Below, piece after piece: positions 14,197 to 62,223 of a stretch of 64,000 nucleotides of DNA (position 1 is the first letter of the stretch; each line of letters opens with the position of its first letter). Both the position numbers and the translations under genes were made by a program. The notes under the pieces are model-generated. The model had not been told where the DNA came from. It did no database searches and worked only from the letters and a program-made list of their open reading frames with translations. Location of the stretch: NCBI GenBank assembly GCA_035538875.1, contig DATLJP010000052.1, positions 65 to 64,064 on the forward strand, read 5' to 3'. This DNA comes from Chthoniobacterales bacterium. Lineage in GTDB: Bacteria; Verrucomicrobiota; Verrucomicrobiia; Chthoniobacterales; UBA10450.

Positions 14197-14199
14197 GGC

Positions 14200-14514: not shown

Positions 14515-14616
14515 AAGATCTTTCCCGGGGAGAAAAAGCCGCGCAAAATCTCACAGAACGTGCCCTCTGACAAGCGGAAAGGACGGGCCTTCACCGAACC
14601 GCCACCGGCGATTGCG

Positions 14617-44222: not shown

Positions 44223-44674
44223 CCTGTTTCGCGCCAATGTCGCGAACGTTCCGGTGGTTCGCGATTCCGTGCATTCTTGCCTACTTCGTCTTGCGACCAG
44301 ACCGCTCTCGGGCTGACATTACGATCAATTTTTCAAGAATAAGGATGTGCCTGCTGCTCTGGCGAGTCATTACGGTCTCCAGAAAAGGTCCAAAACAATC
44401 GCTGCGCCTAGTTTGGGGGAACGCCGCACGGCCAACGCCAAAGAGATGGGACTCCTGACCGCGTGGGCCGAAAGCTTGCATGGAAGGAAGCGCGACCTGC
44501 TTAAATAGCGACGTGGAGGGCATGAAGGCTTTCACGGCCGAGGTCGCGGAATTCGATGCCGCGCTCGCAAAAGCGACCGCGGAATAAAGCGCGATCTGGC
44601 CGCAAACACAAAAGAAGTAGGACGTCACCCCGCGTCCGGTTGACCAACTTCGCGCCAAAAGCTAATCTCAACGG

Positions 44675-46063
44675 ATGAGTATGCCGCCCATGCTCACCCA
44701 GGCGGCCCGCAGTTCGCGGCCGCGTTTGAGCAGGAGTAAAAATAGAAAATCTGTCGGTCCGGCGCGTGTTTTGGACACGCTCAGCAGGCACATTTTGCTC
44801 GATGGTTTCAAGATTGTTCTCGACCAGGAAAGGAGCTCCGGCTCGCATCTGGTAGACGCCGCGAACGGCCATCGCTTGATCGATCTTTACGGTTTCTTCG
44901 GATCGCTGACGATCGGATTTAACCATCCCTACTTCGATCAACCAGAAGTGCAGCGCGATCTGCTGCGCGCGGCGAAGGCGAAGGTCGCCAACTCGGACGT
45001 TTATTCGGAATCCTACGCGGAATTTGTGGAAACGTTTGCGCGCGTTGCCGGCTTGCGGCCGTTAAGTAAATATTTGTTCATCGAAGGCGGTGCGCTCGCG
45101 GTCGAGAACGCGCTGAAAGCGGCGATGGATTGGAAAGTGCGAAAGAACATGGCCGCCGGTCATGGCGAACGCGGCACGCAAGTTTTGCATTTCCGGCACG
45201 CGTTTCATGGACGCAGCGGTTACACCATGAGCCTAACCAATACCGATCCGCGCAAGACAGATTTGTTCGCGAAATTTGATTGGCCGCGCGTCTCGTGTCC
45301 GCACATCGATTTTTCGTTGGCTGAGCCTGAGCGCGAAAAGGACGTGATCGCGCGCGAGAAAAAAGCCGAGCAGGAAATCCGCGATTGGATTGACAAACGC
45401 CGGATCGACATCTGCGCCATTATTATCGAGCCGATCCAGGGCGAAGGCGGCGACAATCATTTCCGTGGCGAATGGTTGAAGAAACTTCGACGAATCTGCG
45501 ACGAAAACGATATCCTGCTCATTTTTGACGAAGTGCAATGCGGCATGGGCGCCACTGGAAAAATGTGGTGCTGTCAGCATTTCGACATCCTGCCAGATCT
45601 GCTTTCGTTTGGGAAAAAGGCCCAAACATGCGGCGTGATGGCTGGTCCGCGGCTCGATGAAGTGAACGACAACGCCTTCCGGTTGCCCAGCCGATTGAAT
45701 TCGACCTGGGGTGGAAATCTGACCGATATGGTCCGATCGATGCATTACATGCACATCATTGAAAAAGAATTTCTGGTCGAGAACGCAGCCAAGGTTGGCG
45801 CGTATTTTTTGGATCAGCTGTGCGACCTGCAGCGTTACGAACCAATGATCACTGCTGTGCGCGGTCGCGGCTTGTTCCTCGCGTTTGATCTCCCAGATGC
45901 GGACACGCGCGAGCGATTTTGGAAGGGCTTGTTCGATCTTGGCGTGCTGGCTTTGCGTTCCGGCGAACGCTCGATTCGTTTTCGTCCGGCGCTCGATATC
46001 ACCGCCGAAGTTGTGGATGAAGCGATGGGTTTAATTCGGCAATATTGCCGCAAACGCAAATAG
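44675..46063 (+). CDS. lat: L-lysine 6-transaminase (lysine epsilon-aminotransferase), class III PLP
   Basis: Blocks match characterised LATs as I remember them: GGALAVENALKAAMDWK, FHGRSGYTMSLTNT, EPIQGEGGDNHF, LIFDEVQ, SFGKKAQTCGVMAG, PSRLNSTWGGNLTDMVR. Confidence 0.8.
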   Translation: MSMPPMLTQAARSSRPRLSRSKNRKSVGPARVLDTLSRHILLDGFKIVLDQERSSGSHLVDAANGHRLIDLYGFFGSLTIGFNHPYFDQPEVQRDLLRAAKAKVANSDVYSESYAEFVETFARVAGLRPLSKYLFIEGGALAVENALKAAMDWKVRKNMAAGHGERGTQVLHFRHAFHGRSGYTMSLTNTDPRKTDLFAKFDWPRVSCPHIDFSLAEPEREKDVIAREKKAEQEIRDWIDKRRIDICAIIIEPIQGEGGDNHFRGEWLKKLRRICDENDILLIFDEVQCGMGATGKMWCCQHFDILPDLLSFGKKAQTCGVMAGPRLDEVNDNAFRLPSRLNSTWGGNLTDMVRSMHYMHIIEKEFLVENAAKVGAYFLDQLCDLQRYEPMITAVRGRGLFLAFDLPDADTRERFWKGLFDLGVLALRSGERSIRFRPALDITAEVVDEAMGLIRQYCRKRK

Positions 46064-46065
46064 CG

Positions 46066-47601
46066 ATGCAATCAGTCTTTGAGAAGCTCGCGCTGAGCGG
46101 GGATAACGCAGGAGTCTTTGACGGCGAATGGCGCGGCGGCGGCGCGAAAATCGATAAGTTCTCGCCAATCGATGGGACGAAACTAGCGAGCGTTCGGACT
46201 GCGTCGGACGATGATTACAAAAGGGCAATCGTGCGCGCGCAGGAAGCGTTTGAGAAATGGAGAAAAACTCCCGGACCGGTGCGTGGTGATACTGTTCGCC
46301 GCTTAGGAAACGCTCTTCGCGATTTGAAACACGAGCTTAGCCAGCTCGTGACACTTGAGACCGGGAAGATCATCGCCGAAGGGGAAGGCGAAGTGCAGGA
46401 GATGATCGACATTTGCGATTTTGCGGTCGGCCAATCGCGGATGCTTTACGGGCTGACGATTCAATCCGAGCGGCCGAGTCACCGTCTGATGGAACAGTGG
46501 CATCCGCTCGGCCTCGTCGCCGTGATCACTGCGTTTAATTTTCCGGTCGCGGTCTGGTCCTGGAACGCGGCACTCGCTGCTGTTTGCGGCGACGCAACAA
46601 TTTGGAAGCCGTCAGAGAAAACTCCGCTGACTGCGATTGCAGTGACAAAGATTGCCGAGCGGGTTTGCCGCGAAGCCGGAGCTGATCCGGCGATTTTTAG
46701 CTTACTGATTGGAGATCGCAGGACAGTTGGCCAAAAATTGGCGGACGATGCCCGAATTCCTTTGATCTCGGCGACCGGTTCAGTCGCGATGGGACTGAAC
46801 GTTGCGAAAACGGTTCATGGTCGCCTTGGCAGGACGATCATGGAGCTCGGCGGCAATAACGCTCTGATTGTCGCGCCGACCGCCGATATCGATCTAGCGA
46901 TGGAATCAATTTTCTTCGGCGCAGTCGGAACGGCCGGTCAACGTTGCACTTCGACGCGGCGCGTGATCATGCATGAGTCGGTCGCGGACAAAGTCCGCCA
47001 AAAATTACTGCGCGCATACAAATCGCTCCCGATCGGAAATCCGCTCGATCGAAAAACTTTGATGGGGCCGTTGATCGACAAAAAAGCGGTCGATGCGGTG
47101 CAGGATTCGATTCAGAAACTGAAAGCCGAAGGCGGCGAAGTTCTTTACGGCGGCGAACCGATGGATTTGCCGGGCGGCTGCTATATGAAGCCGTGCCTCG
47201 CAAACGCAAAACCGAATTTCAGAATTGTGCAGGAAGAAACGTTTGGGCCGCTGCTTTATTTGATGACATATCGCGATTTTGATGAAGCGATCGCGATACA
47301 AAACGGCGTGCCGCAGGGCCTAACGAGCTCCATTTTCACAAATGACGTGCGCGAAGCGGAGAGATTTGTCAGTGCGGTTGGCAGCGATTGCGGCATTGCG
47401 AATGTGAACACCGGCACGAGTGGTGCCGAGATCGGCGGTGCGTTCGGTGGCGAAAAGAATACGGGAGGCGGGCGTGAGAGCGGCAGCGATTCATGGAAGA
47501 GCTACATGCGCCGACAAACCAACACGATTAACTTCTCCTCCGAGCTTCCGCTGGCTCAGGGAATCCAGTTTGGCGCGGGCGAAGGAAGCGGAGCGGTTTA
47601 A
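46066..47601 (+). CDS. pcd: delta-1-piperideine-6-carboxylate / 2-aminoadipate-6-semialdehyde dehydrogenase (ALDH7 family)
   Basis: ALDH7-type N-terminus (GVFDGEWRGGG...SPIDG), with ELGGNNA and GTAGQRCTSTRR catalytic motifs. The gene starts 3 nt after lat. Confidence 0.8.
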   Translation: MQSVFEKLALSGDNAGVFDGEWRGGGAKIDKFSPIDGTKLASVRTASDDDYKRAIVRAQEAFEKWRKTPGPVRGDTVRRLGNALRDLKHELSQLVTLETGKIIAEGEGEVQEMIDICDFAVGQSRMLYGLTIQSERPSHRLMEQWHPLGLVAVITAFNFPVAVWSWNAALAAVCGDATIWKPSEKTPLTAIAVTKIAERVCREAGADPAIFSLLIGDRRTVGQKLADDARIPLISATGSVAMGLNVAKTVHGRLGRTIMELGGNNALIVAPTADIDLAMESIFFGAVGTAGQRCTSTRRVIMHESVADKVRQKLLRAYKSLPIGNPLDRKTLMGPLIDKKAVDAVQDSIQKLKAEGGEVLYGGEPMDLPGGCYMKPCLANAKPNFRIVQEETFGPLLYLMTYRDFDEAIAIQNGVPQGLTSSIFTNDVREAERFVSAVGSDCGIANVNTGTSGAEIGGAFGGEKNTGGGRESGSDSWKSYMRRQTNTINFSSELPLAQGIQFGAGEGSGAV

Positions 47602-49031
47602 CGAGCCGTCGTTAGTTCGAAAAGCCCGCCGAGATCTTTGGCGGTATCAATGCTCATAATGCATTTCTGCAACTTTATGCATTGATTCTTGCCGATCACG
47701 TCGCCGCCGAGCGCGGTGAATTTCACCGCAATCTCATCCTCGGTCATCGGATCGCGGGGGTCGCCCTTCGGAACATCGACCTGCGTGAAGTGCGACTTGC
47801 CGTCATTGGTCGTAATCGTCACGCGGCTCGGCTGAAACTTCGGAAAGAGCGCTTCAAATTCTTCGTTCGCGACCACTTTCACTTTGTCCATGATTGGAAC
47901 GAGGGACCTATCGCGAACACGTTCTTCCTTGAATTGCAACGGCGTTACCATTCCGTCAACGAGTCCGACGGCCATGCAATAAGGCAGCGAATGGTCGGCC
48001 GTTTCTTTTGATTCAGGACGATATTTGTGCGGATCGCCGAGGATGTCGGCGGCACGCGCAATCACTTCGACTTTGATTTCTTTCACGTCGTCGGCCTCGA
48101 TCTTATGTTCTTTGACCGTCTTCATCATCGCGGTCAACGGCGCGTGACTCAGCGCTTCGATCGGAAAACTTTTCATCCCGCAATCGAGAATCCGGTAGTG
48201 AGACTTCGGTGAATGCGGAAGATCTTTGACCAATTCCTCGTCGTCGAACGCTGCGGGCTGACCTTTGTATTGAACATGGTGGAATACAGCGAACAGTCCT
48301 TCCTTGCCGTCAATGATGTGCTCTGGTCCGGAAAATCCGGCGCGGGCGAGCAGCGCGCTTTCTGCGCCCATGCGACCGGCCCACGGATCGACCGTGTTCT
48401 TCATGTTGGTGAGCTTTCCGGCAGTCACTGCTCCCGGACAAAACGTGCGCGCCGCGCTAATGCCGATGGCCGAGACCATTTGATCGCCAGTGAGATTCAA
48501 GACGCGGCCGGCTGCGACCGGCGCTGCGAACGCGCTCAACGTCGCATGATGCCAGCCATATTCGCGCACTCCGGGTCGCCCGATTTCGCAGAGACGCATT
48601 TCAATTTCGTAGGCAATGATTGTTGCCAAAATCAGATCCTTGCCGCTCAATCCTTCGCTTTCGCAGAGCGCGAGCGGCGCCGCGATGAGATCGCTCGGAT
48701 GGCACGGGTCCGCTTTCCAATAAACGTCGTTGTAATCCATTGCGCGGATCATGTGGCCGTTTAGAAACGCGGCATCGACCGGATTGGTTTTGAAGCCGGA
48801 GACGAATGCAGTCGCTTTGCCGTTGCCGCCGCCCATCGCCCGATAGTGTTTCAGCAAAATCTTCGCGTCGTCTTGCTGGCTGCCGCCCAGCGCGCAGCCG
48901 ATCGAGTCAAACCAAAATAATTTCGCAGCTTGGATCGCCTCCGTCGAAAGATGTTCGTATTTCAGCGTGCGCGCCCATTCAGCAATAACGCCCGATAGGA
49001 GACGTTTTGATTCAGTTGCGTGCTTTGCCAT
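47598..49031 (-). CDS. MmgE/PrpD-family dehydratase (2-methylcitrate-dehydratase-like)
   Basis: 477 aa from ATG 49031, with PrpD-like blocks (FDSIGCALGG, DYNDVYW, CHPSDLIAAPLA, GWHHATL). It is the last gene of the six-gene operon. Confidence 0.8.
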   Translation of the reverse strand: MAKHATESKRLLSGVIAEWARTLKYEHLSTEAIQAAKLFWFDSIGCALGGSQQDDAKILLKHYRAMGGGNGKATAFVSGFKTNPVDAAFLNGHMIRAMDYNDVYWKADPCHPSDLIAAPLALCESEGLSGKDLILATIIAYEIEMRLCEIGRPGVREYGWHHATLSAFAAPVAAGRVLNLTGDQMVSAIGISAARTFCPGAVTAGKLTNMKNTVDPWAGRMGAESALLARAGFSGPEHIIDGKEGLFAVFHHVQYKGQPAAFDDEELVKDLPHSPKSHYRILDCGMKSFPIEALSHAPLTAMMKTVKEHKIEADDVKEIKVEVIARAADILGDPHKYRPESKETADHSLPYCMAVGLVDGMVTPLQFKEERVRDRSLVPIMDKVKVVANEEFEALFPKFQPSRVTITTNDGKSHFTQVDVPKGDPRDPMTEDEIAVKFTALGGDVIGKNQCIKLQKCIMSIDTAKDLGGLFELTTAR

Positions 49032-49050
49032 GACGCTGTCGATGTTGTGA

Positions 49051-50205
49051 TTAACTGGCGTAATCGGCGATCGCTTTCGCGACTTCAAGCGTGGAGTTTT
49101 TGCCGCCCATGTCGTAAGTGCGCATTTTTCCTTCCTTAATCACGCGGGCGATCGCGTTTTCCAAACGCGCTGCCTTTTCCGCTTCCTTGAGCCAATCAAG
49201 CATCAGCTTTGTCGTTAAAAGCATCGCGATCGGATTGACCTTGTATTGAGCGGCATATTTCGGAGCCGAGCCGTGTGTGGGTTCGAACACGGCGTAGTTG
49301 TCGCCGAGGTTCGCGCTCGGCGCGAATCCGAGTCCACCGACTAAACCCGCGCATAGATCGCTCACGATGTCGCCAAACATATTTTCTGCGACAAGCACTG
49401 AGTAATCCTGCGGGTTCTTGAACATCCACATGCAGATCGCGTCGATGTTCGCGTCGTCGGCGCGGATGTCGGGAAAACTTATAGCAACATCGCGGAAGCA
49501 GCGCATCATCAAGCCGCCGGTCTCGCGGAGCACATTCGGTTTTTCGATCAGTGTGACGCGTTTGCGTCCGGTTTTCCTCGCGAACTCAAACGCTTGTTTG
49601 CAAATGTTAGTGCAACCCTGCACGCTCATGATCCGCGTCGAAAGCGCTATGTTCTCGAGTCCGGCTTTGTCTCTCCATTTCTTCATCTTCGGATTAGCGC
49701 AGAGCGCCGTGTAAACCGACTCCGGCAACGGGAAAAATTCGACGCCCCCGTACATGCCCTCAGTGTTTTCCCGAAACACGACTTGATCGATCAGCACATC
49801 TTCGCCGCTCGGGTTAGTGACTTTGTTGCCGCGAAAATTCAGTGGATTACCTGGATAACTTTTACACGGCCGCATGTTGGTGTGGAGATTGAACAACTGC
49901 CGCAGCCCAACGATCGGCGAAAAATAAACGAGCCCTTTGCCTTTGAGTTCAGGCGCCAATTCTTCCTTCGCTTCGGATTGAGGTTTGCTCGTGATCGCGC
50001 CAAAGAGGCCGCAGGTCGTTTCTTTCAGCACTTTGACCGTGCGGTCGGGCAGCGCGTTGCCTTCCTTGCACCAAAACTCCCAGCCGATGTCGCAGGGCAC
50101 GTATTCAGCGTCGAGTTTGATCTGATCCAAAATGAGGCGCGCAGCCACCATCACGTCATGTCCCACGCCGTCACCTGGCATCCAAGCAATTCGATATTTC
50201 GCCAT
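49051..50205 (-). CDS. isocitrate/isopropylmalate/homoisocitrate-dehydrogenase-family beta-decarboxylating dehydrogenase
   Basis: GDGVGHDV, SPIVGLRQLFNLHTNMRP, FRENTEGMYGG and NMFGDIVSDLCAGLVGGLG motifs. Confidence 0.85.
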   Translation of the reverse strand: MAKYRIAWMPGDGVGHDVMVAARLILDQIKLDAEYVPCDIGWEFWCKEGNALPDRTVKVLKETTCGLFGAITSKPQSEAKEELAPELKGKGLVYFSPIVGLRQLFNLHTNMRPCKSYPGNPLNFRGNKVTNPSGEDVLIDQVVFRENTEGMYGGVEFFPLPESVYTALCANPKMKKWRDKAGLENIALSTRIMSVQGCTNICKQAFEFARKTGRKRVTLIEKPNVLRETGGLMMRCFRDVAISFPDIRADDANIDAICMWMFKNPQDYSVLVAENMFGDIVSDLCAGLVGGLGFAPSANLGDNYAVFEPTHGSAPKYAAQYKVNPIAMLLTTKLMLDWLKEAEKAARLENAIARVIKEGKMRTYDMGGKNSTLEVAKAIADYAS

Positions 50206-50252
50206 AGGATGTCGATGTTATCGGCGTGTGTCGCGCTCGCAAGCGAGTCAGC

Positions 50253-52229
50253 TTACCTTTTCGCGCGAAGAGAGGAAGCAACCAGATTTTCGGCGCCGCC
50301 CGCAACAATCAATTCCTGAGCGGTGGGACTCAGCGGCGGGAAAGCGAATGATTTTTCGCCAACGGTGAGGACGGAACTGGCGTAGTCGATTGTGATTTCC
50401 GGACCAACTGTGGTCGGCGCGCGATTCTTCAACGTATTGCGCAAGTGCGCCACCAAATCCGGACATTCAAAAGCTACGAAGCCGTTGTTGAACGCGTTGC
50501 GTTTGTAGGTCTCGGAGAAACTTGCGGCGATGACGCAGGGAATTCCCTTAAATTTCAACGCCGTTGCCGCCTGTTCGCGGCTCGAACCGCTTCCGAAATT
50601 CAATCCGCCGACTACGACATCGCCTTTTTGATAGAGCGCGTTGAAATTCGGGTCGTAATTTTCAAATGTGACCGCCGCCATTTCCTCTGGGGTCATGTCG
50701 TCGCGATAAGTGTGTTTGCTGCCGTAGATCCCATCTGTGTTCAGATTGTCTTTGTCGATCAAAAGAACACGGCCGTGCACTTTCGGCGGGAAACCCGCGA
50801 TGATTTCCACCGAACTCGCCGACTTCGCTTTCTTTTCGGTGCGACGAACTGCGATGCCCGCGGGGCGCTCGGAAAATGTCTGCGGCGCGCAAATGAATCC
50901 AGCCAACGCGCTCGCCGCGACGACCGCTGGCGAACCCAAATAAACGAGCGCCTCGCGATCGCCCATACGGCCTTTAAAATTTCGGTTTGTAGCGCTGATC
51001 GCAGTTTCGCCTTTTTGAACTAAACCGCGGCCCAGACCGATGCATGCTCCGCAGCCCGGCGGTAATGGAATTGCGCCGGCATCTATTAAAGTTTTCCAAT
51101 CGCCATTCGATTCCGACTTCGCCTGCACTTCGGCGCTGGCCGGCGCCAGATAAAATTCAACGCCGTCGGCAATGTGTCCGCCCCGTGCACGCACAACTTC
51201 GGCGGCGTCGTGTAAATCCTCAAACCGCGCGTTGACGCAGGACAGCAAATAAGCCTTCTGAATCGGGACGTGTTTTCGTTCGATTTCGGGAAGCGAGACG
51301 ATCGTTTTCACTTCGTTAGGCCCGGAAACGTGCGGAACCACACTCGTGAGATCGAGATCGAGTTCGATAGCGTAATCGGCATCTGGATCAGCACTGGTCT
51401 CGCTTTGATTCTTCCACCAAGTGTCGATGTCGATCTTGTTATAACCTGATCGGCTTTTCGGGCCGCGCTTTCCGGGACGGTTCGGATTGGTGAACTCGGG
51501 GACGCGCGACCGAAGGTAATTTACAGTGACTTCATCGAAAGGAAAGACGCCGGCGAGCGCGCCCCACTCAGTCGTCATGTTAGCGATCGTCATGCGCTCG
51601 GACATGGAAAGTGCCAGCACTCCGTCGCCTACGAATTCCACCGCGTGATTGAGCACCTCGTCTTTGTTGAACAAGCCGCACAGCGTGATGATCACGTCTT
51701 TGCCCGTAACGCTGGGTGAAAGTGTTCCTTTGAGCCGGACCTTCGCGACCGACGGGACTTGCCACCAGGTGACTCCGGTTGCCCAAATGCTTGCGGCGTC
51801 GGTGCGCACGACCGGCGTGCCGAGCGCGGCCATCGCGCCGTATAAATTTGAATGCGAATCACTCGCCACCACCAGTGCACCGGGGACCACGTAGCCCTGC
51901 TCGACCATCACCTGGTGGGAAATTCCGGTGCCAGCTGGGTAAAAATCAATGCCGTGTTCGGCGGCGAACGCCGCGATCTTGGCGTACTTCTCGAGATTTT
52001 TTGGCGTCGTGTTTTGAATGTCGTGATCGATCGCGAACACCGGTTGTGCCGGATCGGCGATTTTGGTTGCACCGATCTGTTTGAACTTCGGAATCACCGC
52101 GCCGGTGTTGTCGTGCGTCATCACGTGCCGCGGACGGATCGAAACAAAATCGCCAGCGCGCACCATCGCGCCTTTCGGAAGTCCATCCGCGTGTCGTGCG
52201 GCAATTTTTTCGACCAGCGTCAGGCCCAT
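50253..52229 (-). CDS. aconitase-superfamily hydro-lyase, fused large+small domains, fungal homoaconitase (Lys4/LysF)-like
   Basis: 658 aa. Blocks: RPRHVMTHDN, FAIDHDIQN, GIDFYPAGTGISHQVMVEQG, ASDSHSN, TDAASIWATGVTWWQVP, DVIITLCGLFNKDEVLNHAVEF, Fe-S Cys PPGCGACIGLG, SATNRNFKGRMG. These resemble fungal homoaconitase more than LeuC/LeuD, judged from memory. Confidence 0.75.
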   Translation of the reverse strand: MGLTLVEKIAARHADGLPKGAMVRAGDFVSIRPRHVMTHDNTGAVIPKFKQIGATKIADPAQPVFAIDHDIQNTTPKNLEKYAKIAAFAAEHGIDFYPAGTGISHQVMVEQGYVVPGALVVASDSHSNLYGAMAALGTPVVRTDAASIWATGVTWWQVPSVAKVRLKGTLSPSVTGKDVIITLCGLFNKDEVLNHAVEFVGDGVLALSMSERMTIANMTTEWGALAGVFPFDEVTVNYLRSRVPEFTNPNRPGKRGPKSRSGYNKIDIDTWWKNQSETSADPDADYAIELDLDLTSVVPHVSGPNEVKTIVSLPEIERKHVPIQKAYLLSCVNARFEDLHDAAEVVRARGGHIADGVEFYLAPASAEVQAKSESNGDWKTLIDAGAIPLPPGCGACIGLGRGLVQKGETAISATNRNFKGRMGDREALVYLGSPAVVAASALAGFICAPQTFSERPAGIAVRRTEKKAKSASSVEIIAGFPPKVHGRVLLIDKDNLNTDGIYGSKHTYRDDMTPEEMAAVTFENYDPNFNALYQKGDVVVGGLNFGSGSSREQAATALKFKGIPCVIAASFSETYKRNAFNNGFVAFECPDLVAHLRNTLKNRAPTTVGPEITIDYASSVLTVGEKSFAFPPLSPTAQELIVAGGAENLVASSLRAKR

Positions 52230-52246
52230 GGCGATTTTGTCAAAGA

Positions 52247-52849
52247 TTACTTCTTGCCCACGCGCTTGCCAAGGAGCTTGGCGATGTCGAAGTCCACAAA
52301 ATCAGCGTGATGAAAGATGATCGACTCGATTGAGCGCTCCACTTTGTCTCCTTCGTGGCTGTGCGTCGCGATCACATGCATGACTTCGGCGGGAATTCCG
52401 TGTTTGTAGGCCAGCGCGACGCCGCTGAACGGGTGCCGCAGGCGTTGTCCAAATTTCCCCTGGACCACTTTGCCTGACGTGTCCTTGTCGTACTCAAGCG
52501 GTTTGCCGACATCGGCCAGGAGCGCTCCGGCGATGAGATGATCGCGTTGGATCGGAATGCTGCATCGAAACGATCTCCTAAGCACGTCGGCGATGGCGAT
52601 ACATTGCCGCGCGCAGGAATTCAAGTGCTCCACGAACGTCATCTCGATATCGCCAGCTAGCAGCGTGAACTTCACCGCGCGCAATTCGGCAAAGGTCCAG
52701 CCCTTTTTGCCGCAACCGGTACTGATCGCTTCGCTCCACACTGCCGCCACTTTTTCGCGCAATGACTTCTGTTTGATCTTCATCAAGCTAGGAAACAGCT
52801 TTGCGATTTCTTTAACGCCGTAGGTTTTTTGCTGGGTCGTTGTTGTCAT
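52247..52849 (-). CDS. HD-superfamily-like protein with variant dyad (AD instead of HD)
   Basis: His/Asp pattern FVEH...LLADVGK...RHPF...THSHEG...FHHADFVD. 200 aa. Confidence 0.5.
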   Translation of the reverse strand: MTTTTQQKTYGVKEIAKLFPSLMKIKQKSLREKVAAVWSEAISTGCGKKGWTFAELRAVKFTLLAGDIEMTFVEHLNSCARQCIAIADVLRRSFRCSIPIQRDHLIAGALLADVGKPLEYDKDTSGKVVQGKFGQRLRHPFSGVALAYKHGIPAEVMHVIATHSHEGDKVERSIESIIFHHADFVDFDIAKLLGKRVGKK

Positions 52850-52865
52850 GATTGTCGATCTTTGT

Positions 52866-54578
52866 TTAGGATGAAATTCTTCTCGGCGGCGGTCCGTCGT
52901 AGCCGTGTTTGACCGGGTCGATTCGCCTCATTGGCTTTTCGCGAGTCTGTTCTTCGATCACGTGCGCAATGAGTCCGGGCGCGCGCGCGATCATGAAAAT
53001 ACCGTTGAAGGCCACCGGATTCATTCCGAGATCGGCCAGAATTGCCCCGATCGCGCCGTCGACATTGATCGGCAACGCTTGCTTGGCATCGGCGAATGAT
53101 TTTTCAACTGCGCGCGCCGCTTTCATGTGCATGCCGTCCACGCCCGCTTCGCGGGCGAGCTCGAACAATCGCACTGTGCGTGGATCTTTGGTGTGAACGC
53201 GATGCCCAAAACCCGACATCCGTTCGCCAGTTTCGCGCATCGCGGCAAGCGTGCGGGTCGCGGCTTCGTCGATTGAAATGGATTCCCGCGTAGAACGATC
53301 AGCGATTACTTTCAGTTGGCGCGCGCAATCTTCGATCGCACCGCCGTGATACCGATTGATCGACATAATGCCGGCGGCGACGGCTGCGCTTAAAGACGCA
53401 CCGGTTGAAGCGACCGTTCGCGCGGCCAAAGCGCTCGGCGGCGTCGCCCCGTGATCGATCGACGAAACGAGAATCGCGTCCATCAACCGGGCGACCTCTG
53501 GCTTCGGCAACTCGCCAGTCAAAATCAAATATGCCGCCGCGCCGAACGAAACGCGTCCCATCAGTTCGGCGATGTCATAGCCGCGCACGGCAACGCGATT
53601 CGGCTCAACGCGCGTGACTGCCGTGTTCCAGACTGCGTTCTTGTCGGTTTCACTCATCAGACTTTCTCCTTTCATTCGTTTCAAAATTTCAACGACCGCA
53701 GCCGGCAGTTCGCCGAAAGCATCGACCACGGTGGCACCGGCTTCACGCAAAGCTTTCACTTTTCCGGGCTGCGTGCCATGACCGCCTTCAATGATTGCGC
53801 CGGCATGGCTGAAGCGCGTGCCTTCGCGCGCCGCCTTTCCGCCGATATATGCAATCACCGGCTTGGTCACCTTTCGATTCCGAATCAACTGGGCGAGTTC
53901 TTCCTCCTGTGACGAACCGATTTCGCCAAAGATCACGATCGCTTCGGTAAGCGGATCTGCTTCAAACATGAGCGCCGCATCGGGAATGCGAATTCCGAGG
54001 ACCGCGTCGCCGCCAATGTGGACGATTGTCGAAATGCGCACGCCCGCTTGTCCTAAATAATAGCCGGTGCTTGACGCCATCCCGCCCGAACGGCTAATCA
54101 CGCCGACGCCTTTCGGAATTCCGGGTTTAAACCATTGCCGCGCACTCTCGGCCCGACCACCGATCATTCCGACGACGGCTTTGCCCGGACTCAAAACGCC
54201 GAGTGTATTCGGACCAAGAAACGTTGCGCCGTTGGCTTTGGCTGCGGCGGCAATTTCCATGGCGTCCCAAACCGGAACGCGATCCGGCACGAGCACGGTA
54301 AGTTTGATTCCGGCTTCAATCGCTGAGATGGCAGCATCTTTCGCACCTACTGCGGGCACGAAGAGGACAGAAATGTCGATCTTGTGCAAGGAATTGGCCG
54401 CATCCCGTGGCGTGTTGAATACGGGAACGCCAAGCACGTTCTCGCCGCCTTTCCCGGGCGTTACACCGGCGACCACGTTTGTTCCGTATTCGCGCATCAA
54501 TCGCGTCCGTGCGCGGCCTTCGCGTCCCGTGATTCCCTGCACTAGGACGCGTTTCGTTTCGTCGACCAAGATCGCCAT
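52866..54578 (-). CDS. ATP-citrate-lyase alpha-like subunit: SucD-like CoA-ligase domain fused to citrate-synthase-fold (citryl-CoA-lyase-like) domain
   Basis: The N-terminal half has VQGITGREG, GPNTLG, SRSGGM and the phospho-His loop FSHAGAIIEG. The C-terminal half has IDHGATPPS, NRYHGGA and the citrate-synthase signature GFGHRVHTKDPR. Confidence 0.8.
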   Translation of the reverse strand: MAILVDETKRVLVQGITGREGRARTRLMREYGTNVVAGVTPGKGGENVLGVPVFNTPRDAANSLHKIDISVLFVPAVGAKDAAISAIEAGIKLTVLVPDRVPVWDAMEIAAAAKANGATFLGPNTLGVLSPGKAVVGMIGGRAESARQWFKPGIPKGVGVISRSGGMASSTGYYLGQAGVRISTIVHIGGDAVLGIRIPDAALMFEADPLTEAIVIFGEIGSSQEEELAQLIRNRKVTKPVIAYIGGKAAREGTRFSHAGAIIEGGHGTQPGKVKALREAGATVVDAFGELPAAVVEILKRMKGESLMSETDKNAVWNTAVTRVEPNRVAVRGYDIAELMGRVSFGAAAYLILTGELPKPEVARLMDAILVSSIDHGATPPSALAARTVASTGASLSAAVAAGIMSINRYHGGAIEDCARQLKVIADRSTRESISIDEAATRTLAAMRETGERMSGFGHRVHTKDPRTVRLFELAREAGVDGMHMKAARAVEKSFADAKQALPINVDGAIGAILADLGMNPVAFNGIFMIARAPGLIAHVIEEQTREKPMRRIDPVKHGYDGPPPRRISS

Positions 54579-56114
54579 CTAGCGCGCGCCCCCGATCAGT
54601 TCGTCCAGTCCCGGGACATCAAGCTGCAAATAAAATCCTTCGATCTCGGCGAGCCGACATTCAATCTCGCACGCGACAAGCTCGGAATCTTTGTTCGCGA
54701 ATTCTTCGCTCGGCAATCCTATTGCCGGTTTGCCTTCGCGATCAACCACTAGACCGCCGGAATGACTTTCAACTGCCGTGCGAATCTGCGGCCATTTCGG
54801 ATTGTCGATCCAAACGCGGCCGCCTTTCACTTCAAACTTCGTGACCGAATTACTCTCGATAAACTTCGGTGCACGCGGACTCCGCGGTTTCCAGCTTTTG
54901 CCTTTTGCTTCTGCAACCAGCTCGGCGAACCGATTTGCGATCGTCGCGGGCGCGTCGGTTTTGCGATAGCCTTCAATCCGCGCACCAAGCAGTTTGGACA
55001 TTCGCGCTAGAATTTCAACAGCGCGATCCTCGGTGTTGCCGCCGAGACGAATAACCGCTGGAATATCGAGATCGAGTTCCCAAAATGCTTTGGCCAATCC
55101 ATAAGCGGACCAATATTGCTCCTGACTCGCGACGCCGGAGCCCGATCCGAAATAACCAACGAGATCCGGTTGCGCCAAAATAATCCGAGCCGCGCGATAA
55201 ACTTTGGACGCGGATGGGTTACCGCTCGTGTCGGTGAAATTGGCGATCGTAAACCCGGCGTTGACGATCGCGTCCATCGACATCATCGATCCGCCGCCGC
55301 CCGCGCCATGAAAGCCCGCAAGACCCTTCGAATCTTTAGCGGCAGCGGTCGCCAACTGAGCGAAATAAAATGTTCCGCGGTGATCGCTTTGTTCCACGGC
55401 GTAAGCGATGCGTTCGAGAGCTGTAGGCGGATGATCAAACTCGCGCGCAATCTCAATTTTCAATTCGGGATGCTGCGCGACGGCGTAATCATCAATCGTG
55501 ATGCGGCAATCCGCGGCAACAAATTCACCACTCTTCGTCAGAACGAGCGGATTAATTTCGAGTGACCGCGCTTCGGTGCTGCGCGCGGCAGCAAATAATT
55601 TCCGAACCGAATCGGCGAGTTGCTTCGCTTGTTCTTTTCTAAGTCCGCATGAATCAACCGCTTCGTTCAGCGCCGAATCAAGCGGTCCGGTTTTTACATC
55701 GCAAGCGATCCGGTGCGCTGATGCGGCGCGCTCTTCGACTCCGGTTCCGCCGCCGGCCGCAAAAATGATTACCGGCGCGCGGGCCGCGTCATCGATCGCA
55801 AGCGACAGAAAAAATTCCTGTTCGATGTTGATCTTTTCTTCAACCAGCACGGCTTCCACCGGAAATTCTCCGACTTTCATCGCCAGCATGCGTTTCGCGT
55901 GACTGCGCACCTCATCCGCCTTTTTCGCGAACGCGACTCCGCCGATGCCGGCCCGGCCAGTCGTCCACGCTTGAATCTTGATCACGACTTCGCCGCCAAG
56001 GGCTTTGGCCGCAGCCACCGCATCATCAGGAGTTAAAGCAGCGCGACCACGTGGAATTGTGAATCCATTCGCGGCCAAGATCGCTTTGCCTTGATACTCG
56101 TGAAGTCGGGCCAT
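54579..56114 (-). CDS. ATP-citrate-lyase beta-like / citryl-CoA-synthetase large-subunit-like ATP-grasp protein with ~95-aa extra C-terminal domain
   Basis: The SucC-like N-terminus MARLHEYQGKAILAANG precedes an ATP-grasp core. An ACL/CCS-type block FYFAQL...GFHGAGGGGSMMSMDAI is present. The stop abuts the start of the alpha-like gene. Confidence 0.75.
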   Translation of the reverse strand: MARLHEYQGKAILAANGFTIPRGRAALTPDDAVAAAKALGGEVVIKIQAWTTGRAGIGGVAFAKKADEVRSHAKRMLAMKVGEFPVEAVLVEEKINIEQEFFLSLAIDDAARAPVIIFAAGGGTGVEERAASAHRIACDVKTGPLDSALNEAVDSCGLRKEQAKQLADSVRKLFAAARSTEARSLEINPLVLTKSGEFVAADCRITIDDYAVAQHPELKIEIAREFDHPPTALERIAYAVEQSDHRGTFYFAQLATAAAKDSKGLAGFHGAGGGGSMMSMDAIVNAGFTIANFTDTSGNPSASKVYRAARIILAQPDLVGYFGSGSGVASQEQYWSAYGLAKAFWELDLDIPAVIRLGGNTEDRAVEILARMSKLLGARIEGYRKTDAPATIANRFAELVAEAKGKSWKPRSPRAPKFIESNSVTKFEVKGGRVWIDNPKWPQIRTAVESHSGGLVVDREGKPAIGLPSEEFANKDSELVACEIECRLAEIEGFYLQLDVPGLDELIGGAR

Positions 56115-56219
56115 GGATGGGTGCTATTCCATTATCCTGGCCAATTTTCAAAACTGTTTCAGCATTCCAAAAAGATATGGCGCTGTTGAAAAGCTTTGGG
56201 CTTTAATCAGCCGCTGGCA

Positions 56220-57383
56220 ATGACTTCGCTCGATTATTACGGCATCGAAGAACTGCTCACGGACAACGAACGGGCAGCGCGTGAGCGGGCGCGGCGTTTT
56301 GTGCAAGAGCAAGCGATGTCGGAAATCGTGCCTTGTCATCGCGCGGCCAAGTTTCCAGAAAAGCTCATCCCGCAAATGGGCGAGTTGGGTTTTTTTGCGC
56401 CGTATTTGAAAGAGTACGGTTGCGCGGGCGTGAGTTACACGGCGTTCGGGCTCATGATGCAGGAGCTTGAACGAGGCGACTCCGGGCTGCGTTCGCTCGC
56501 GTCGGTCCAGGGTGCACTTGCCATTCACGCAATTCATTCCTTCGGAACGCCCGAACAACAAACGCGTTGGCTTCCCGGATTGGTCTCAGGCAAACGCATC
56601 GGTTGTTTCGCGCTAACCGAGCACGGACACGGCTCAGATCCCGCCGGAATGGAAACGCGCGCGACCCGAGACGGCGATCATTATGTCTTGAATGGCAGCA
56701 AATGTTGGATTGGAAACGCGTCGATCGCCGACGTGAAAGTTGTTTGGGCGAAAGACGACGATCGAAAGGTCGGAGGATTCATTGTCGAGAAAGATGCGCC
56801 CGGATTTCGCGCGCAGGACATTGAAGGAAAATTCAGTCTGCGCATGTCGCGAACATCGGAGTGCTGGTTCGAAAATTGTCGCATTCCGATCGGAAACCGT
56901 TTGCCGAACGCGAAGGGCCTGCGCGCGCCGCTATCGTGTTTATCGCAGGCGCGCGTGAGCATAACCTGGGGAGTGATCGGCGCGGCGATCGATTGCTACG
57001 AGACGGCGCTCGCCTATGCAAAGTCGAGAAAGCAATTTGATCGGCCAATCGCCGGTTTCCAACTGGTGCAGGAAAAACTGGTTTGGATGGTGCAGGAAAT
57101 CACCAAGGCTCAATTGCTCGCCTTGCGCCTCACTCGCATGATGGAAGCAGGCACGGCGCGTCCCGAACAAATTTCCCTGGCCAAACGCAACAACGCCTGG
57201 ATGGCGCTCGAATGTGCGCGGAGGGCACGGGACGTTTTGGGTGCGGTCGGCATCACGGATCGCTATTCGGTCATTCGGCATTTGCTGAACCTTGAAACAG
57301 TCTGCACTTACGAAGGCACGCACGATATTCACATGCTGGTCGTTGGCCGCGACATCACCGGGATCAGTGGCTTTGGCGGCTGA
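56220..57383 (+). CDS. gcdH: glutaryl-CoA dehydrogenase
   Basis: ALTEHGHGSDPAGMETRA and TYEGTHDIHMLVVGRDITG blocks are typical of GCDH. The start is ATG 56220; the ORF track uses TTG 56196. Confidence 0.8.
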   Translation: MTSLDYYGIEELLTDNERAARERARRFVQEQAMSEIVPCHRAAKFPEKLIPQMGELGFFAPYLKEYGCAGVSYTAFGLMMQELERGDSGLRSLASVQGALAIHAIHSFGTPEQQTRWLPGLVSGKRIGCFALTEHGHGSDPAGMETRATRDGDHYVLNGSKCWIGNASIADVKVVWAKDDDRKVGGFIVEKDAPGFRAQDIEGKFSLRMSRTSECWFENCRIPIGNRLPNAKGLRAPLSCLSQARVSITWGVIGAAIDCYETALAYAKSRKQFDRPIAGFQLVQEKLVWMVQEITKAQLLALRLTRMMEAGTARPEQISLAKRNNAWMALECARRARDVLGAVGITDRYSVIRHLLNLETVCTYEGTHDIHMLVVGRDITGISGFGG

Positions 57384-57424
57384 GTCGCGTATGACAGCGC
57401 GCCGAGATTGGCTAAGCTAATTGC

Positions 57425-58663
57425 ATGAGCGAGTCAGTTTACATTCTCGGCGGCGGGCGCACCGATTTTAAGCGCAACATGAAGAAGGAAGGGAAGACCA
57501 TTCGGCATTTGATTGTCGAAGCCGGCAAGAAAGCGCTCGACGATGCCAAGATCGACGCGGGCGAGATTGAGGCGGGCGCGGTTGGAAATTTCAATGCCGG
57601 CCAGTTCACGAAGCAATTGCAGCTCGGCGCCTTCATTCCAGAGATCGATCCGAAGTTGCGCGGGATCCCGACGATGCACATCGAGGCCGCATGCGCTTCA
57701 GGCGCGCTTTCGGTTCTGCTCGGTGCGCAGTGGATCATGGGCGGAATTTACGATGCCGTGCTCGTCGTTGGTGCAGAGCAGCAGAAGACGATGTCATCGC
57801 TCGACGGATCCGATGTGCTCGGCGCGGCGGCCGATTATCACAACGAAAAACCGGAATACGGCGATTTCATGTTCCCGAAACTCTTTGGACGTATCGCCCA
57901 GATCTACATCGACAAATACGGGGCAAAGGAATCGGACCTGGCGACCGTGGCCTGGAAAAATTACGCACACGCGAAAATGAATCCGCTGGCGCAAATGCGC
58001 GATGCCGATTTAACCCTCGATTGTGCCTCGCAAGTATCCGACAAAAATCCGAGCGTCGCGCCGCCACTCAAAGTTTCGGATTGTTCGCAAATCACTGACG
58101 GCTCGGCGTCGCTCGTCCTCGTGTCCGGCAAATATTTAGACAAGATCGGCCGCGACAAAAAGAAAACGCCGCGACTGCTCGGTTTTGGTCACGCGACCGA
58201 TTATTTGCCGCTCGACAAAAAAGACGCGCCGACATTTTCGATCGCGCGCAAAGCAGCGGAGAGAGCTTTCGGAATGGCGAATTTGAAACCGCGCGATTTA
58301 AATGGCGCCGACGTTCACGATTGTTTCTCGGTCACTGAGATTGTGGCTTACGAGATTCTCGGACTGGCCGAACCCGGCAAAGGCGCCGAGCTCGCAAAAA
58401 GTGGTGCGACCGCATTGCCGCAAGTCCGTAATGAGAAAATGAAAGGCAAGTTTGCGTTTGAAATTCCAGTGAATCCCGGTGGCGGTTTAATTGGTGACGG
58501 CCATCCCGTCGGTGCGACGGGGGTTCGACAGGTGTTCGAAGCTTATCAGCATCTGACCGACCAGGCAGGCCAACGGCAGATTCCAAACTCGAAGCGGTAT
58601 CTCACGTTCAACATGGGCGGCAGTCTAACGACGTCCGTCGCGATGTTGTGGGGACGCGACTAA
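57425..58663 (+). CDS. thiolase-family protein (SCP-x/nonspecific-type 3-ketoacyl-CoA thiolase)
   Basis: Active-site Cys in IEAACASGA, and C-terminal GGGLIGDGHPVGATG and NMGGS motifs. Confidence 0.8.
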   Translation: MSESVYILGGGRTDFKRNMKKEGKTIRHLIVEAGKKALDDAKIDAGEIEAGAVGNFNAGQFTKQLQLGAFIPEIDPKLRGIPTMHIEAACASGALSVLLGAQWIMGGIYDAVLVVGAEQQKTMSSLDGSDVLGAAADYHNEKPEYGDFMFPKLFGRIAQIYIDKYGAKESDLATVAWKNYAHAKMNPLAQMRDADLTLDCASQVSDKNPSVAPPLKVSDCSQITDGSASLVLVSGKYLDKIGRDKKKTPRLLGFGHATDYLPLDKKDAPTFSIARKAAERAFGMANLKPRDLNGADVHDCFSVTEIVAYEILGLAEPGKGAELAKSGATALPQVRNEKMKGKFAFEIPVNPGGGLIGDGHPVGATGVRQVFEAYQHLTDQAGQRQIPNSKRYLTFNMGGSLTTSVAMLWGRD

Positions 58664-62126: not shown

Positions 62127-62223
62127 TCTTAGACAGAATAAATAGACAAAATGAACCGAATCATTTGCAAACCAATTCTGGTCATTGTGTTCATTCTGTC
62201 GAAATATTAGCTTTTTCGCCCCG

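Follow-up and report, generated by a model that had tools for sequence, protein, structure and literature searches.

Gene organization of the locus

This work concerns a six-gene cluster in a 64,000-nt stretch of DNA from a Chthoniobacterales bacterium (GenBank assembly GCA_035538875.1, contig DATLJP010000052.1, positions 65 to 64,064 of the forward strand; hereafter the window). The genes lie in one direction on the minus strand and encode, in the order of transcription, two proteins resembling the subunits of ATP-citrate lyase (ACL), a variant HD-domain protein, a Lys4-type homoaconitase, a dehydrogenase resembling homoisocitrate dehydrogenase (HICDH) and a member of the MmgE/PrpD family (Table 1). 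The ACL-like, Lys4-like, HICDH-like and PrpD-like genes are given the working names aclB and aclA, lys4, idh and prpD. A first-pass annotation, made from the sequence alone, had suggested that the cluster runs homocitrate chemistry in reverse, from lysine-derived 2-oxoadipate to 2-oxoglutarate and acetyl-CoA. Enzyme families were assigned with Pfam and NCBIfam profile models, and the nearest solved relatives were sought by sequence search of the PDB. All family calls of that annotation held, with corrections for the PrpD-like protein and the SucD-like half of AclA, and the motifs that it quoted (GAGGGGS, SHAGAI, GFGHRVHTKDPR, HVMTHDN, IDHDIQN, DFYPAGTGISHQ and LCGLFNKDEVLNHAVEF) were all found in the translations.

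The coordinates of the six open reading frames and the gaps between them were reproduced. The gaps, in transcription order, are 0, 16, 17 and 47 nt, and the last is 19 nt when prpD starts at the ATG at 49031. This probable start (477 aa) was chosen by independent gene calls on near-identical contigs; the longest open reading frame, from a TTG at 49088, would overlap the gene upstream. Independent calls on such contigs start idh 8 codons later (376 aa). Since the 384-aa form, from residue 3 onward, can be aligned to the beginning of Thermus HICDH (KYRIAW vs AYRICL), the start at 50205 is probably right. As described earlier, the cluster converges on lat-pcd and diverges from gcdH: its 3' end meets that of pcd with stop regions overlapping by 4 nt (47598-47601), and aclB is separated from gcdH by 81 nt (TTG start of gcdH at 56196) or 105 nt (ATG start, 387 aa, the form given by the independent calls). 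A promoter scan found no consensus sigma-70 promoter in the aclB-gcdH intergenic region. Over 44400-58900, the promoter/terminator scan returned 1 promoter-like site against 5.7 expected and 30 terminator-like sites against 22.9 ± 4.8 expected. An identical HD protein in the same gene order is present on soil contigs in ENA, and among the matches listed, the Lys4-like, HD and ACL-like proteins have their best homologues in metagenome-assembled genomes (MAGs) of soil Chthoniobacterales or Candidatus Udaeobacter; the organism itself falls in the Ca. Udaeobacter clade.

Table 1. Coordinates of the cluster, its flanking genes and other features of the window
Feature	Position	Strand	Basis or remark
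SucC-like ATP-grasp subunit (aclB), 511 aa	54579..56114	-	Pfam ATP-grasp_2 133 bits
SucD + citryl-CoA-lyase-domain fusion (aclA)	52866..54578	-	NCBIfam, PDB search, alignment A1
Variant HD-domain protein (HD), 200 aa	52247..52849	-	Pfam HD 29 bits; TIGR00277 HDIG 28.6 bits
Fused large + small domain Lys4-type Fe-S dehydratase (lys4), 658 aa	50253..52229	-	TIGR00139
HICDH-like beta-decarboxylating dehydrogenase (idh), 384 aa	49051..50205	-	Pfam Iso_dh 261 bits
MmgE/PrpD-family protein (prpD)	47598..49088	-	Pfam MmgE_PrpD_N 221 bits, MmgE_PrpD_C 142 bits
Divergent intergenic region aclB/gcdH	56115-56195	none	AT-rich, 81-105 nt, sequence read
L-lysine 6-transaminase (LAT; lat)	44675..46063	+	TIGR03251 equivalog 582 bits vs cutoff 521
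L-piperideine-6-carboxylate (2-aminoadipate semialdehyde) dehydrogenase (pcd)	46045..47601	+	NF050084 equivalog 780 > 730
Glutaryl-CoA dehydrogenase (gcdH)	56196..57383	+	427 bits to GCDH 3sf6, 373 to human GCDH
Thiolase (thl)	57425..58663	+	NF004936 365 bits (cutoff 375); Thiolase_N, Thiolase_C_1 domains
FadJ/FadB-like enoyl-CoA hydratase/3-hydroxyacyl-CoA dehydrogenase (fadB)	40237-42291	+	co-directional with lat-pcd
Long acyl-CoA dehydrogenase (acad)	42237-44222	+	co-directional with lat-pcd
AcnA-type aconitase	649-3501	-	separate from the cluster
Trifunctional-type PutA, 1005 aa	16503-19520	-	proline dehydrogenase + P5C dehydrogenase
Beta_elim_lyase protein	19676-20815	+	threonine-aldolase size
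IcmF-like fused B12-binding/MeaB protein	62185-63375 and beyond	+

The ACL-like ligase/lyase pair

AclB and AclA together carry the Pfam domains ATP-grasp_2, CoA_binding, Ligase_CoA and Succ_CoA_lig, and AclB has a weak Citrate_synth_N match besides. The PDB search ranked the beta subunit of succinyl-CoA synthetase (SCS) first for AclB (154 bits), ahead of the large subunit of citryl-CoA synthetase (CCS; 96 bits) and Chlorobium AclB (84 bits). The G-rich loop GAGGGGS, an ACL-type feature, stands in the alignment where SCS reads GNGAGL, and the loop aligned with NIFGGI of SCS, which we take to contribute to carboxylate binding, is unlike that of either SCS or ACL. AclB also has a C-terminal extension of some 140 aa, which is conserved between phyla; AclB homologues from Phycisphaerae-like lineages share 59-63% identity with it and measure 509-534 aa.

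Residues 1-300 of AclA form a SucD-like CoA-binding/phospho-His domain, in which H258 lies within SHAGAI, opposite the GHAGA loop of SCS in the alignment, and residues 308-570 form a citrate-synthase-fold domain of the size of citryl-CoA lyase (CCL). The catalytic residues H376, H459 and D507, together with R467 and R532, are invariant in alignment A1. Since the N-terminal part of citrate synthase is absent, the C-terminal half should be, judging from the ACL and CCL literature, a lyase and not a hydrolysing synthase. AclA scored 265 bits with the NCBIfam SCS-alpha model, under its cutoff; it exceeded the cutoffs of two citryl-CoA lyase subfamily models (NF004869, 258 > 212; NF004866, 253 > 245) and stayed under that of the CCL equivalog (NF004864, 209 < 261). 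Its PDB matches were SCS-alpha (258 bits), Hydrogenobacter CCL 6hxp (185 bits), Chlorobium ACL-alpha (177 bits) and the small subunit of CCS (157 bits). The previously proposed union of a phospho-His half with a citrate-synthase-fold domain was thus confirmed in its domains and motif, but the SucD-like half proved nearer to genuine SCS-alpha than to ACL-alpha.

The pair resembles AclBA and CcsAB/Ccl of the tricarboxylic acid cycle in its reductive form (rTCA cycle) in being a two-subunit ATP-grasp/SCS-type ligase with a phospho-His loop, a truncated citrate-synthase-fold lyase on the alpha subunit, a G-rich beta loop and the catalytic His/His/Asp plus Arg. It differs in the extra C-terminal region of its beta subunit, in its partners (Lys4-, HICDH- and PrpD-type enzymes and an HD protein instead of aconitase and isocitrate dehydrogenase [IDH]), in its context of lysine and acyl-CoA catabolism rather than autotrophy, and in its predicted substrate, homocitrate. 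The fusion appears to be independent of that in classical ACL, since its N-terminal half is nearer to SCS-alpha and its C-terminal half to the free-standing Hydrogenobacter CCL than either is to the ACL of Chlorobium or of humans; clustering at 50% identity gave few full-length members of this type.

The homoaconitase-type dehydratase and the HICDH-like dehydrogenase

The Lys4-like protein combines the Pfam domains Aconitase and Aconitase_C within a single chain, and its translation contains the three Cys ligands for a 4Fe-4S cluster (SCVNAR and GCGAC motifs). It scored 739.4 bits with the homoaconitase equivalog TIGR00139 (cutoff 529.9), and its orthologues at two Phycisphaerae-like loci scored 722 bits (L083) and 707 bits (L086). 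Every LeuC, HacA and Acn model of NCBIfam was under cutoff and the AcnD models failed as well, in agreement with the earlier assignment to the Lys4/LysF type. NCBI and JGI give homologues the name homoaconitase.

The dehydrogenase matched AksF2 HICDH best among the NCBIfam models (317 bits), under the cutoff of 540; the other HICDH equivalogs were also under cutoff (AksF, 274 < 500; iso_homocit_dh, 142 < 680), and its NCBIfam matches included no fungal-type HICDH model. Taken whole, it is as close to NAD-IDH (207 bits) as to Thermus HICDH (200 bits), and for its N-terminal domain the best alignment is that with Thermus HICDH (57 vs 29 bits). The substrate loop Y94-F-S96-P-I98-V99-G-L-R102 (YFSPIVGLR) matches that of Schizosaccharomyces pombe HICDH 3ty3 (YSSPIVALR; longer, YSSPIVALRKK), and it is kept in Phycisphaerae-like orthologues as YFSPIVKLR. 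At what we take to be the S113 and N115 positions of Escherichia coli IDH, the protein has Ser and Ile98, so that the Asn for the isocitrate gamma-carboxylate is absent (6ltf reads S-I-N-V). The position of Arg85 of Thermus HICDH is occupied by Val. Glu87 of T. thermophilus isopropylmalate dehydrogenase (IPMDH) would presumably correspond to Ser96, a correspondence assumed with no IPMDH alignment at this position. These residues, which the first-pass annotation had proposed to inspect, fall on the HICDH side, with a loop like that of the S. pombe enzyme. A lineage-specific insertion occupies residues ~110-185.

Where Thermus HICDH and NAD-IDH read GSAPDIAG, the dehydrogenase reads HGSAPKYA, and this is conserved in 31 of 32 orthologues. 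We take APKY to correspond to the K344/Y345 signature of NADP-dependent E. coli IDH, which suggests a cofactor site of the NADP type. All characterised HICDHs are, to our knowledge, NAD-dependent.

The two enzymes share with fungal Lys4/Lys12 the fused Lys4-type Fe-S dehydratase and the SPIV-x-LR loop of S. pombe HICDH. Fungal Lys4-type enzymes catalyse only the homoaconitate/homoisocitrate half-reaction, and the homocitrate/homoaconitate half-reaction requires a separate enzyme, which in fungi is aconitase (PMC3556520). Unlike the fungal genes, those of the window are bacterial (PVC superphylum, for Planctomycetes, Verrucomicrobia and Chlamydiae), have an NADP-type and not an NAD-type cofactor motif, have a PrpD-family protein as the likely partner and an ACL-like enzyme in place of the LeuA-type homocitrate synthase, and cluster with the catabolic genes lat, pcd and gcdH; the direction proposed for them is opposite to biosynthesis.

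The MmgE/PrpD-family protein

Although the PrpD-like protein belongs to the MmgE/PrpD superfamily by Pfam, as claimed before, it is not PrpD proper. It fell far under the cutoffs of the PrpD equivalogs (104 < 950, 78 < 575 and 60 < 458), and its PDB matches were IDS-epimerase (101 bits), Irg1/cis-aconitate decarboxylase (80-93 bits) and PrpD (38-53 bits). It is 73-74% identical to the PrpD-like proteins of the L085 and L086 modules. We infer that it acts as an (S)-homocitrate/cis-homoaconitate (de)hydratase. A role as an enzyme of the cis-aconitate-decarboxylase type was considered and rejected, as decarboxylated homoaconitate would leave the citrate-synthase-fold lyase without a substrate.

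The HD protein

The HD dyad reads A112-D113 (LLADVGK) in all lineages, and the canonical H...HD...D metal motif is lacking. The protein is 67-70% identical between Verrucomicrobiota and the Phycisphaerae-like lineages and has many invariant His and Asp residues. A PDB sequence search with it gave no match. Its AlphaFold2 model had a pLDDT of 69.7 on a shallow alignment (30 sequences, 82-100% identical), and a Foldseek search of this model against the PDB returned nothing under E = 1, with only a faint similarity to the SAMHD1 HD domain. The HD protein had been treated as incidental, a view that we abandon: of the 73 loci that extend 3 kb or more upstream of the Lys4-like gene, 72 carry the HD gene within that stretch, which makes it the most tightly linked partner of the Lys4-like gene. 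We propose the HD protein as an obligatory partner of the Lys4-type enzyme.

A small DUF6958 protein (~93-105 aa), absent from the window, precedes HD in about 30 of the 86 loci L082-L167, which include 80 Lys4-anchored metagenome loci. In some genomes the two are fused into one 295-aa protein (PF22278 + PF01966). DUF6958/HD cases are found at L001 8759-9684 and in proteins P0467, P0468, P0476, P0478, P0488 and P0489. The DUF6958 protein might be a regulator or a third subunit.

Conservation and gene neighbourhoods

A scan of GTDB species genomes with aclA gave 484 relatives, of which the best 80 were mapped; these were 85-92% identical and all from the Udaeobacter-type clade. The surveyed homologous loci carry labels of the form L001, with a neighbourhood of ~20 kb each. 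Linkage was counted at the 37 species-level loci where 8 kb or more flank aclA on each side: aclB was near aclA in 33, HD in 27, lys4 and idh in 24 each, thl in 20, gcdH in 17, lat and pcd in 13 each and prpD in 12.

Three arrangements were seen. In arrangement A, that of the window, thl and gcdH diverge from aclB-aclA-HD-lys4-idh-prpD, which converges on pcd-lat. In arrangement B, fadB-acad-lat-pcd-aclA-HD-lys4-idh(-prpD) run in one direction and aclB lies elsewhere; the pcd-aclA gap is less than ~60 nt in four loci (L031, L047, L049 and L080), and fadB-like and acad genes precede lat-pcd-aclA in L031, L079 and L080, with a fadB-like gene and no acad match in L047. In arrangement C, aclBA lies amid housekeeping genes (DAHP synthase, mfd, SurA-like, pdxA) and HD-lys4-idh is elsewhere, e.g., in L001. 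The co-occurrence with lat and pcd that had been predicted was therefore found in two gene orders, but lat-pcd is adjacent at only about one third of the species-level loci.

Beyond this clade, an aclA group at 72% identity belongs to Phycisphaerae (Planctomycetota), where NCBI uses the name citryl-CoA lyase among the matches listed. The contexts of five Phycisphaerae-like loci (L082, L083, L085, L086 and L087) were read. L086 carries, in one direction, aclB, a CoA-transferase gene, aclA, HD, a TnaA-like gene, a standalone CCL gene and the Lys4-type, HICDH-like, DinB-like and PrpD-like genes, with a true tyrosine phenol-lyase (TPL) gene and a TyrDC-like gene divergently upstream; the L085 module is a shorter version. 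In L083, aclB-aclA is followed ~2.4 kb on by HD, a Sacchrp_dh-family gene and the Lys4-type and HICDH-like genes, and in L082 and L087 HD lies several kb from aclBA. In three lineages aclA and HD lie close together, with 16 nt between them in the window, 12 nt in L085 and an overlap of 4 nt in L086. For the L083 Sacchrp_dh protein, the only relatives of solved structure are Pyrococcus PH1688, which we take to be a characterised lysine 6-dehydrogenase; a putative saccharopine dehydrogenase; and the saccharopine dehydrogenase domain of human aminoadipate semialdehyde synthase. Given that they are of the lysine-6-dehydrogenase and saccharopine-dehydrogenase types, an assignment as carboxynorspermidine dehydrogenase was rejected. 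As Chthoniobacterales and Phycisphaerae-like loci share it, the module is a conserved unit across two PVC phyla, judged from its genes, sometimes beside a lysine epsilon-amine-oxidising enzyme in each. A metagenome scan with the Lys4-like protein of L086 recovered, for the most part, soil contigs of the Udaeobacter type with 64-67% identity to that protein.

Several further features of the surveyed loci were noted. The tryptophanase/TPL-family paralogue stands inside the module, after HD or before the Lys4-like gene, in L086 (12315-13667), L085 (12328-13680) and L088 (~1329-2800); it scored 657 bits with the tryptophanase subfamily model and was under both the TnaA and the TPL equivalog cutoffs, and it has no obvious tie to homocitrate chemistry. 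The CoA-transferase gene of L086 (8687-9967), between aclB and aclA, is of the butyryl-CoA:acetate CoA-transferase type, and the standalone CCL-like gene (13995-14822, 275 aa) is upstream of the Lys4-like gene. Together these two could bring about the same cleavage without ATP, as a bypass in the manner of citrate lyase. In many relatives, a gene of ~790 aa (family f8; L010 5794-8175) lies divergently upstream of aclB, at the position of gcdH in the window; judged by eye from its sequence, its product may be an adenylate/guanylate cyclase with tetratricopeptide repeats and a possible regulator of the module. The 6.5-kb contig of L039 (JBLMXH010000094.1), binned as Nitrospirota, carries an aclB-aclA pair 86% identical to that of the window and most likely belongs to Chthoniobacterales and was binned wrongly. 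When found in Nitrospirota bins, ACL-like genes could be mistaken for markers of the rTCA cycle.

A proposed reverse-homocitrate route

Considering the enzyme families, the specificity residues and the neighbourhoods together, the cluster may constitute an ATP- and NADPH-coupled reverse-homocitrate shunt that drains lysine-derived 2-oxoadipate into central metabolism, a reading to which we give about an even chance. The first-pass annotation had reached a similar route; the families, residue checks and linkage support it, but substrate and flux direction are deduced from the gene content. LAT and piperideine-6-carboxylate (P6C) dehydrogenase would yield 2-aminoadipate, and a further aminotransferase 2-oxoadipate. 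The HICDH-like enzyme would then convert 2-oxoadipate, CO2 and NADPH to homoisocitrate, the Lys4-type enzyme would dehydrate this to cis-homoaconitate, and the MmgE/PrpD-family enzyme would add water to give homocitrate. With ATP and CoA, the SucC-like subunit and the SucD-like domain would form homocitryl-CoA via the phospho-His, and the fused citryl-CoA-lyase domain would split it into 2-oxoglutarate and acetyl-CoA; homocitrate as the substrate of the pair is itself a prediction. Such a shunt would run parallel to the co-encoded glutaryl-CoA branch (GcdH, FadB-like enzyme, thiolase) and would be anaplerotic, supplying a C5 skeleton and regenerating the amino acceptor, with the glutaryl-CoA branch as the energy-yielding one.

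The stereochemistry of the predicted steps is consistent with this gene content. As the citrate-synthase-fold lyase is of the si-type, with the acetyl-derived arm in the pro-S-like position, the isomer handled should be (S)-homocitrate; the re-type LeuA-family synthases of biosynthesis make (R)-homocitrate. Aconitase-family enzymes dehydrate toward the other arm only and cannot dehydrate (S)-homocitrate toward the acetyl-derived arm, which would account for the presence of a PrpD-type dehydratase in the module. The lyase, the PrpD-family (de)hydratase and the Lys4-type enzyme would thus make a stereochemically self-consistent trio. The methylcitrate cycle (PrpC, PrpD, aconitase) offers a parallel: the methylcitrate made by si-type PrpC needs PrpD, since aconitase cannot carry out the required elimination, and aconitase then completes the second half (PMC3556520, citing Brock 2002). 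That cycle and the module are alike in the si-type citrate-synthase-fold enzyme, the MmgE/PrpD-type first half and the aconitase-family second half. In the window, however, the series would be that of C7 homocitrate, an ATP-dependent ligase-lyase replaces the synthase, the PrpD-like protein fails the PrpD equivalogs and the sequence ends in a decarboxylating dehydrogenase instead of PrpB.

As for direction, ACL cleavage has a dG'0 of -8 kJ/mol, and unassisted citrate-synthase-type cleavage one of +38.8 kJ/mol (PMC13147460). An ATP-consuming ligase-lyase would be exergonic in the direction of cleavage, which argues for that direction, as does the combination of CoA-transferase and free CCL in L086, a classic arrangement for ATP-independent acid cleavage. 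The apparent NADP-type site, in a family whose biosynthetic members use NAD, argues for reductive operation. The predicted co-transcription with lat-pcd in arrangement B, the convergence in arrangement A and the divergence from gcdH-thiolase argue for a catabolic one.

Against this reading stand several observations. Combining the published energies with a rough estimate of our own, the summed steps of the module are close to equilibrium, and reductive carboxylation is thermodynamically tight at ambient CO2. The gcdH, FadB-like and thiolase genes already give a complete conventional outlet for 2-oxoadipate, the cluster contains no 2-aminoadipate aminotransferase gene, and the PrpD-like protein has closer relatives in IDS-epimerase and cis-aconitate decarboxylase than in PrpD. 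The module is often found outside catabolic contexts: at about one quarter of the loci anchored on aclA, aclBA has housekeeping genes around it, lat-pcd is absent at about two thirds of the well-flanked aclA loci (present at ~35%), and the L085, L086 and L088 modules adjoin tryptophanase/TPL-family and tyrosine-decarboxylase-like genes, not lysine genes. High conservation and a wide spread would also fit a core biosynthetic role, and a Ca. Udaeobacter MAG has been reported to have no recognisable lysine biosynthesis pathway (PMC7343977).

The last two points would also fit the main rival, the same chemistry run forward, in which the CCL domain condenses acetyl-CoA with 2-oxoglutarate, the SCS-like part frees (S)-homocitrate and makes ATP, and the PrpD-like, Lys4-like and HICDH-like enzymes lead on to 2-oxoadipate, for fungal-like synthesis of 2-aminoadipate and lysine or to feed glutaryl-CoA. 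The Lys4-type and fungal-HICDH-type enzymes are orthologous to biosynthetic ones, the module is well kept (best 80 aclA 85-92% identical; 484 loci with a relative) and often lies among housekeeping genes, the L083 Sacchrp_dh gene beside lys4 could encode a reductively aminating enzyme of the Lys9 or lysine dehydrogenase type, and a whole module near equilibrium, by the same published energies and rough estimate, may be reversible. We nevertheless consider this alternative unlikely. Its ATP-forming synthase step would be uphill (the reverse of -8 kJ/mol, and worse at cellular ATP/ADP), and every homocitrate synthase known to us belongs to the LeuA family and is a hydrolysing enzyme of the re-type. 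The cofactor motif is of the NADP type, whereas characterised HICDHs depend on NAD, and no Lys2-like 2-aminoadipate reductase or LysW/LysX-type gene was found in the surveyed neighbourhoods. Moreover, P6C dehydrogenase, physiologically irreversible, is predicted to be co-transcribed with aclA in four loci, and catabolic gcdH, thiolase and FadB-like genes adjoin.

It is less likely again that the module shortens 2-oxoacids or cleaves tricarboxylates of another kind, such as 2-oxopimelate/(homo)2-citrate, a methylcitrate-like compound or an alkyl- or carboxyalkyl-malate, with 2-oxoadipate as one possible input or none. The best NCBIfam match of the dehydrogenase, under cutoff, is methanogen AksF2, which serves the homo(1-3)isocitrate series, its loop is hydrophobic (Ile-Val) as in IPMDH, and it has the insertion at ~110-185; the MmgE/PrpD member is divergent, and L085, L086 and L088 link the module to TnaA/TPL-family and not lysine genes. 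On the other hand, the key positions of the loop are identical to those of fungal HICDH, the dehydratase passes the homoaconitase equivalog and fails the LeuC, methanogen HacA and AcnD models, and two phyla tie the module to enzymes that oxidise the lysine epsilon-amine.

Improbable to much the same degree is a citrate-specific CCS-CCL fusion, either an ATP-citrate lyase supplying acetyl-CoA and oxaloacetate or an ATP-conserving citrate synthase, that lies near an independent HD/Lys4-like/HICDH-like unit by chance. It would accord with the CCL subfamily models passed by AclA, the NCBI name of the Phycisphaerae homologues, the occurrence of aclBA alone in L015, L019, L021, L028, L082, L087 and others, and that of HD, Lys4-like and HICDH-like genes without aclBA in L001. 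A chance association sits poorly with the tight aclA-HD junction in three lineages (16 nt, 12 nt and the 4-nt overlap) and with an HD gene almost always directly upstream of lys4 (72/73), and citrate specificity with the CCL equivalog score (NF004864, 209 < 261) and an AclB loop at NIFGGI unlike those of SCS and ACL. The window also has a separate AcnA-type aconitase, at the place where a housekeeping acnA had been reported, and no neighbouring gene with an IDH-type substrate loop.

An rTCA cycle for autotrophic CO2 fixation, suggested by the union of ACL-like, aconitase-family and NADP-type IDH-family enzymes in one set, is barely credible, and it was rejected together with an ordinary TCA set: the dehydrogenase has no isocitrate-binding Asn, the dehydratase is of the Lys4 type, the surrounding genes are for amino-acid and acyl-CoA catabolism, and neither 2-oxoglutarate:ferredoxin oxidoreductase nor fumarate reductase, markers whose presence would have spoken against the earlier proposal, was found in the window or in any surveyed neighbourhood.

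With the reverse-homocitrate shunt as the preferred reading, we tentatively advance, at rather less than even confidence, a wider formulation: a near-reversible, ATP/NADPH-coupled link between 2-oxoadipate plus CO2 and 2-oxoglutarate plus acetyl-CoA in PVC bacteria, Ca. Udaeobacter among them, with an ATP-dependent homocitrate lyase, (S)-homocitrate as the intermediate, a new MmgE/PrpD hydratase and a new HD partner.

Relation to known outlets and implications

The known bacterial outlet for 2-oxoadipate is its oxidative decarboxylation to glutaryl-CoA, followed by GcdH, and in Pseudomonas putida the HglS route leads via D-2-hydroxyglutarate to 2-oxoglutarate. The proposed route shares with these the LAT/P6C-dehydrogenase start, a GcdH encoded next door and, with HglS, the end product 2-oxoglutarate. 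In contrast to them it would fix CO2, spend ATP and NADPH, keep all six carbons and use other enzymes. A literature search, in which most subscription journals were outside coverage, returned no description of the cluster, of an ATP-dependent homocitrate lyase or of a reversed homocitrate route. The components all come from known families and are combined on principles familiar from ACL and from the methylcitrate and aminoadipate pathways.

If the route operates, it would be a fourth, carbon-conserving and CO2-fixing outlet for 2-oxoadipate besides the glutaryl-CoA, HglS/2-hydroxyglutarate and fermentation routes, making lysine glucogenic and fixing one CO2 per lysine degraded. It would also provide a new substrate class for ACL-type enzymes, a first physiological role for the 'wrong' homocitrate enantiomer, and functions for a widespread divergent MmgE/PrpD clade and a conserved HD protein. 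Ca. Udaeobacter is described in the literature as globally abundant in soil, and soil Chthoniobacterales are reported to live largely on imported amino acids. The genes are present in at least 484 species-level genomes of the scan, mainly of soil Chthoniobacterales, and the route would matter for the cycling of carbon and nitrogen in soil and for dark CO2 fixation among heterotrophs. Read in reverse, as an ATP-conserving homocitrate synthase, the enzyme would be of interest for the engineering of adipate or lysine pathways. Automated annotation at present gives these genes the names succinyl-CoA synthetase, citryl-CoA lyase and homoaconitase, which could mislead the reconstruction of pathways, giving false calls of the rTCA cycle or of alpha-aminoadipate biosynthesis.

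Other genes of the window

The 25 kb around the cluster form an island of amino-acid and acyl-CoA catabolism, in which lat and pcd overlap by 19 nt. On the gcdH side the island further carries genes for a glyoxalase-family protein, a zinc-dependent alcohol dehydrogenase (Zn-ADH), a short-chain dehydrogenase/reductase (SDR) and an IcmF-like mutase; the remainder of the window holds housekeeping genes plus PutA. In related loci, a ~603-aa isobutyryl-CoA-mutase-like part (family f29) adjoins the IcmF-like B12-binding/MeaB protein. This IcmF-like pair is conserved near the gcdH-thiolase side with the SDR, the Zn-ADH and a glyoxalase/VOC-family protein, possibly an epimerase, which suggests a further acyl-CoA rearrangement pathway in the island. 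Farther away, the genes for the trifunctional-type PutA and the Beta_elim_lyase protein are consistent with an amino-acid-scavenging lifestyle.

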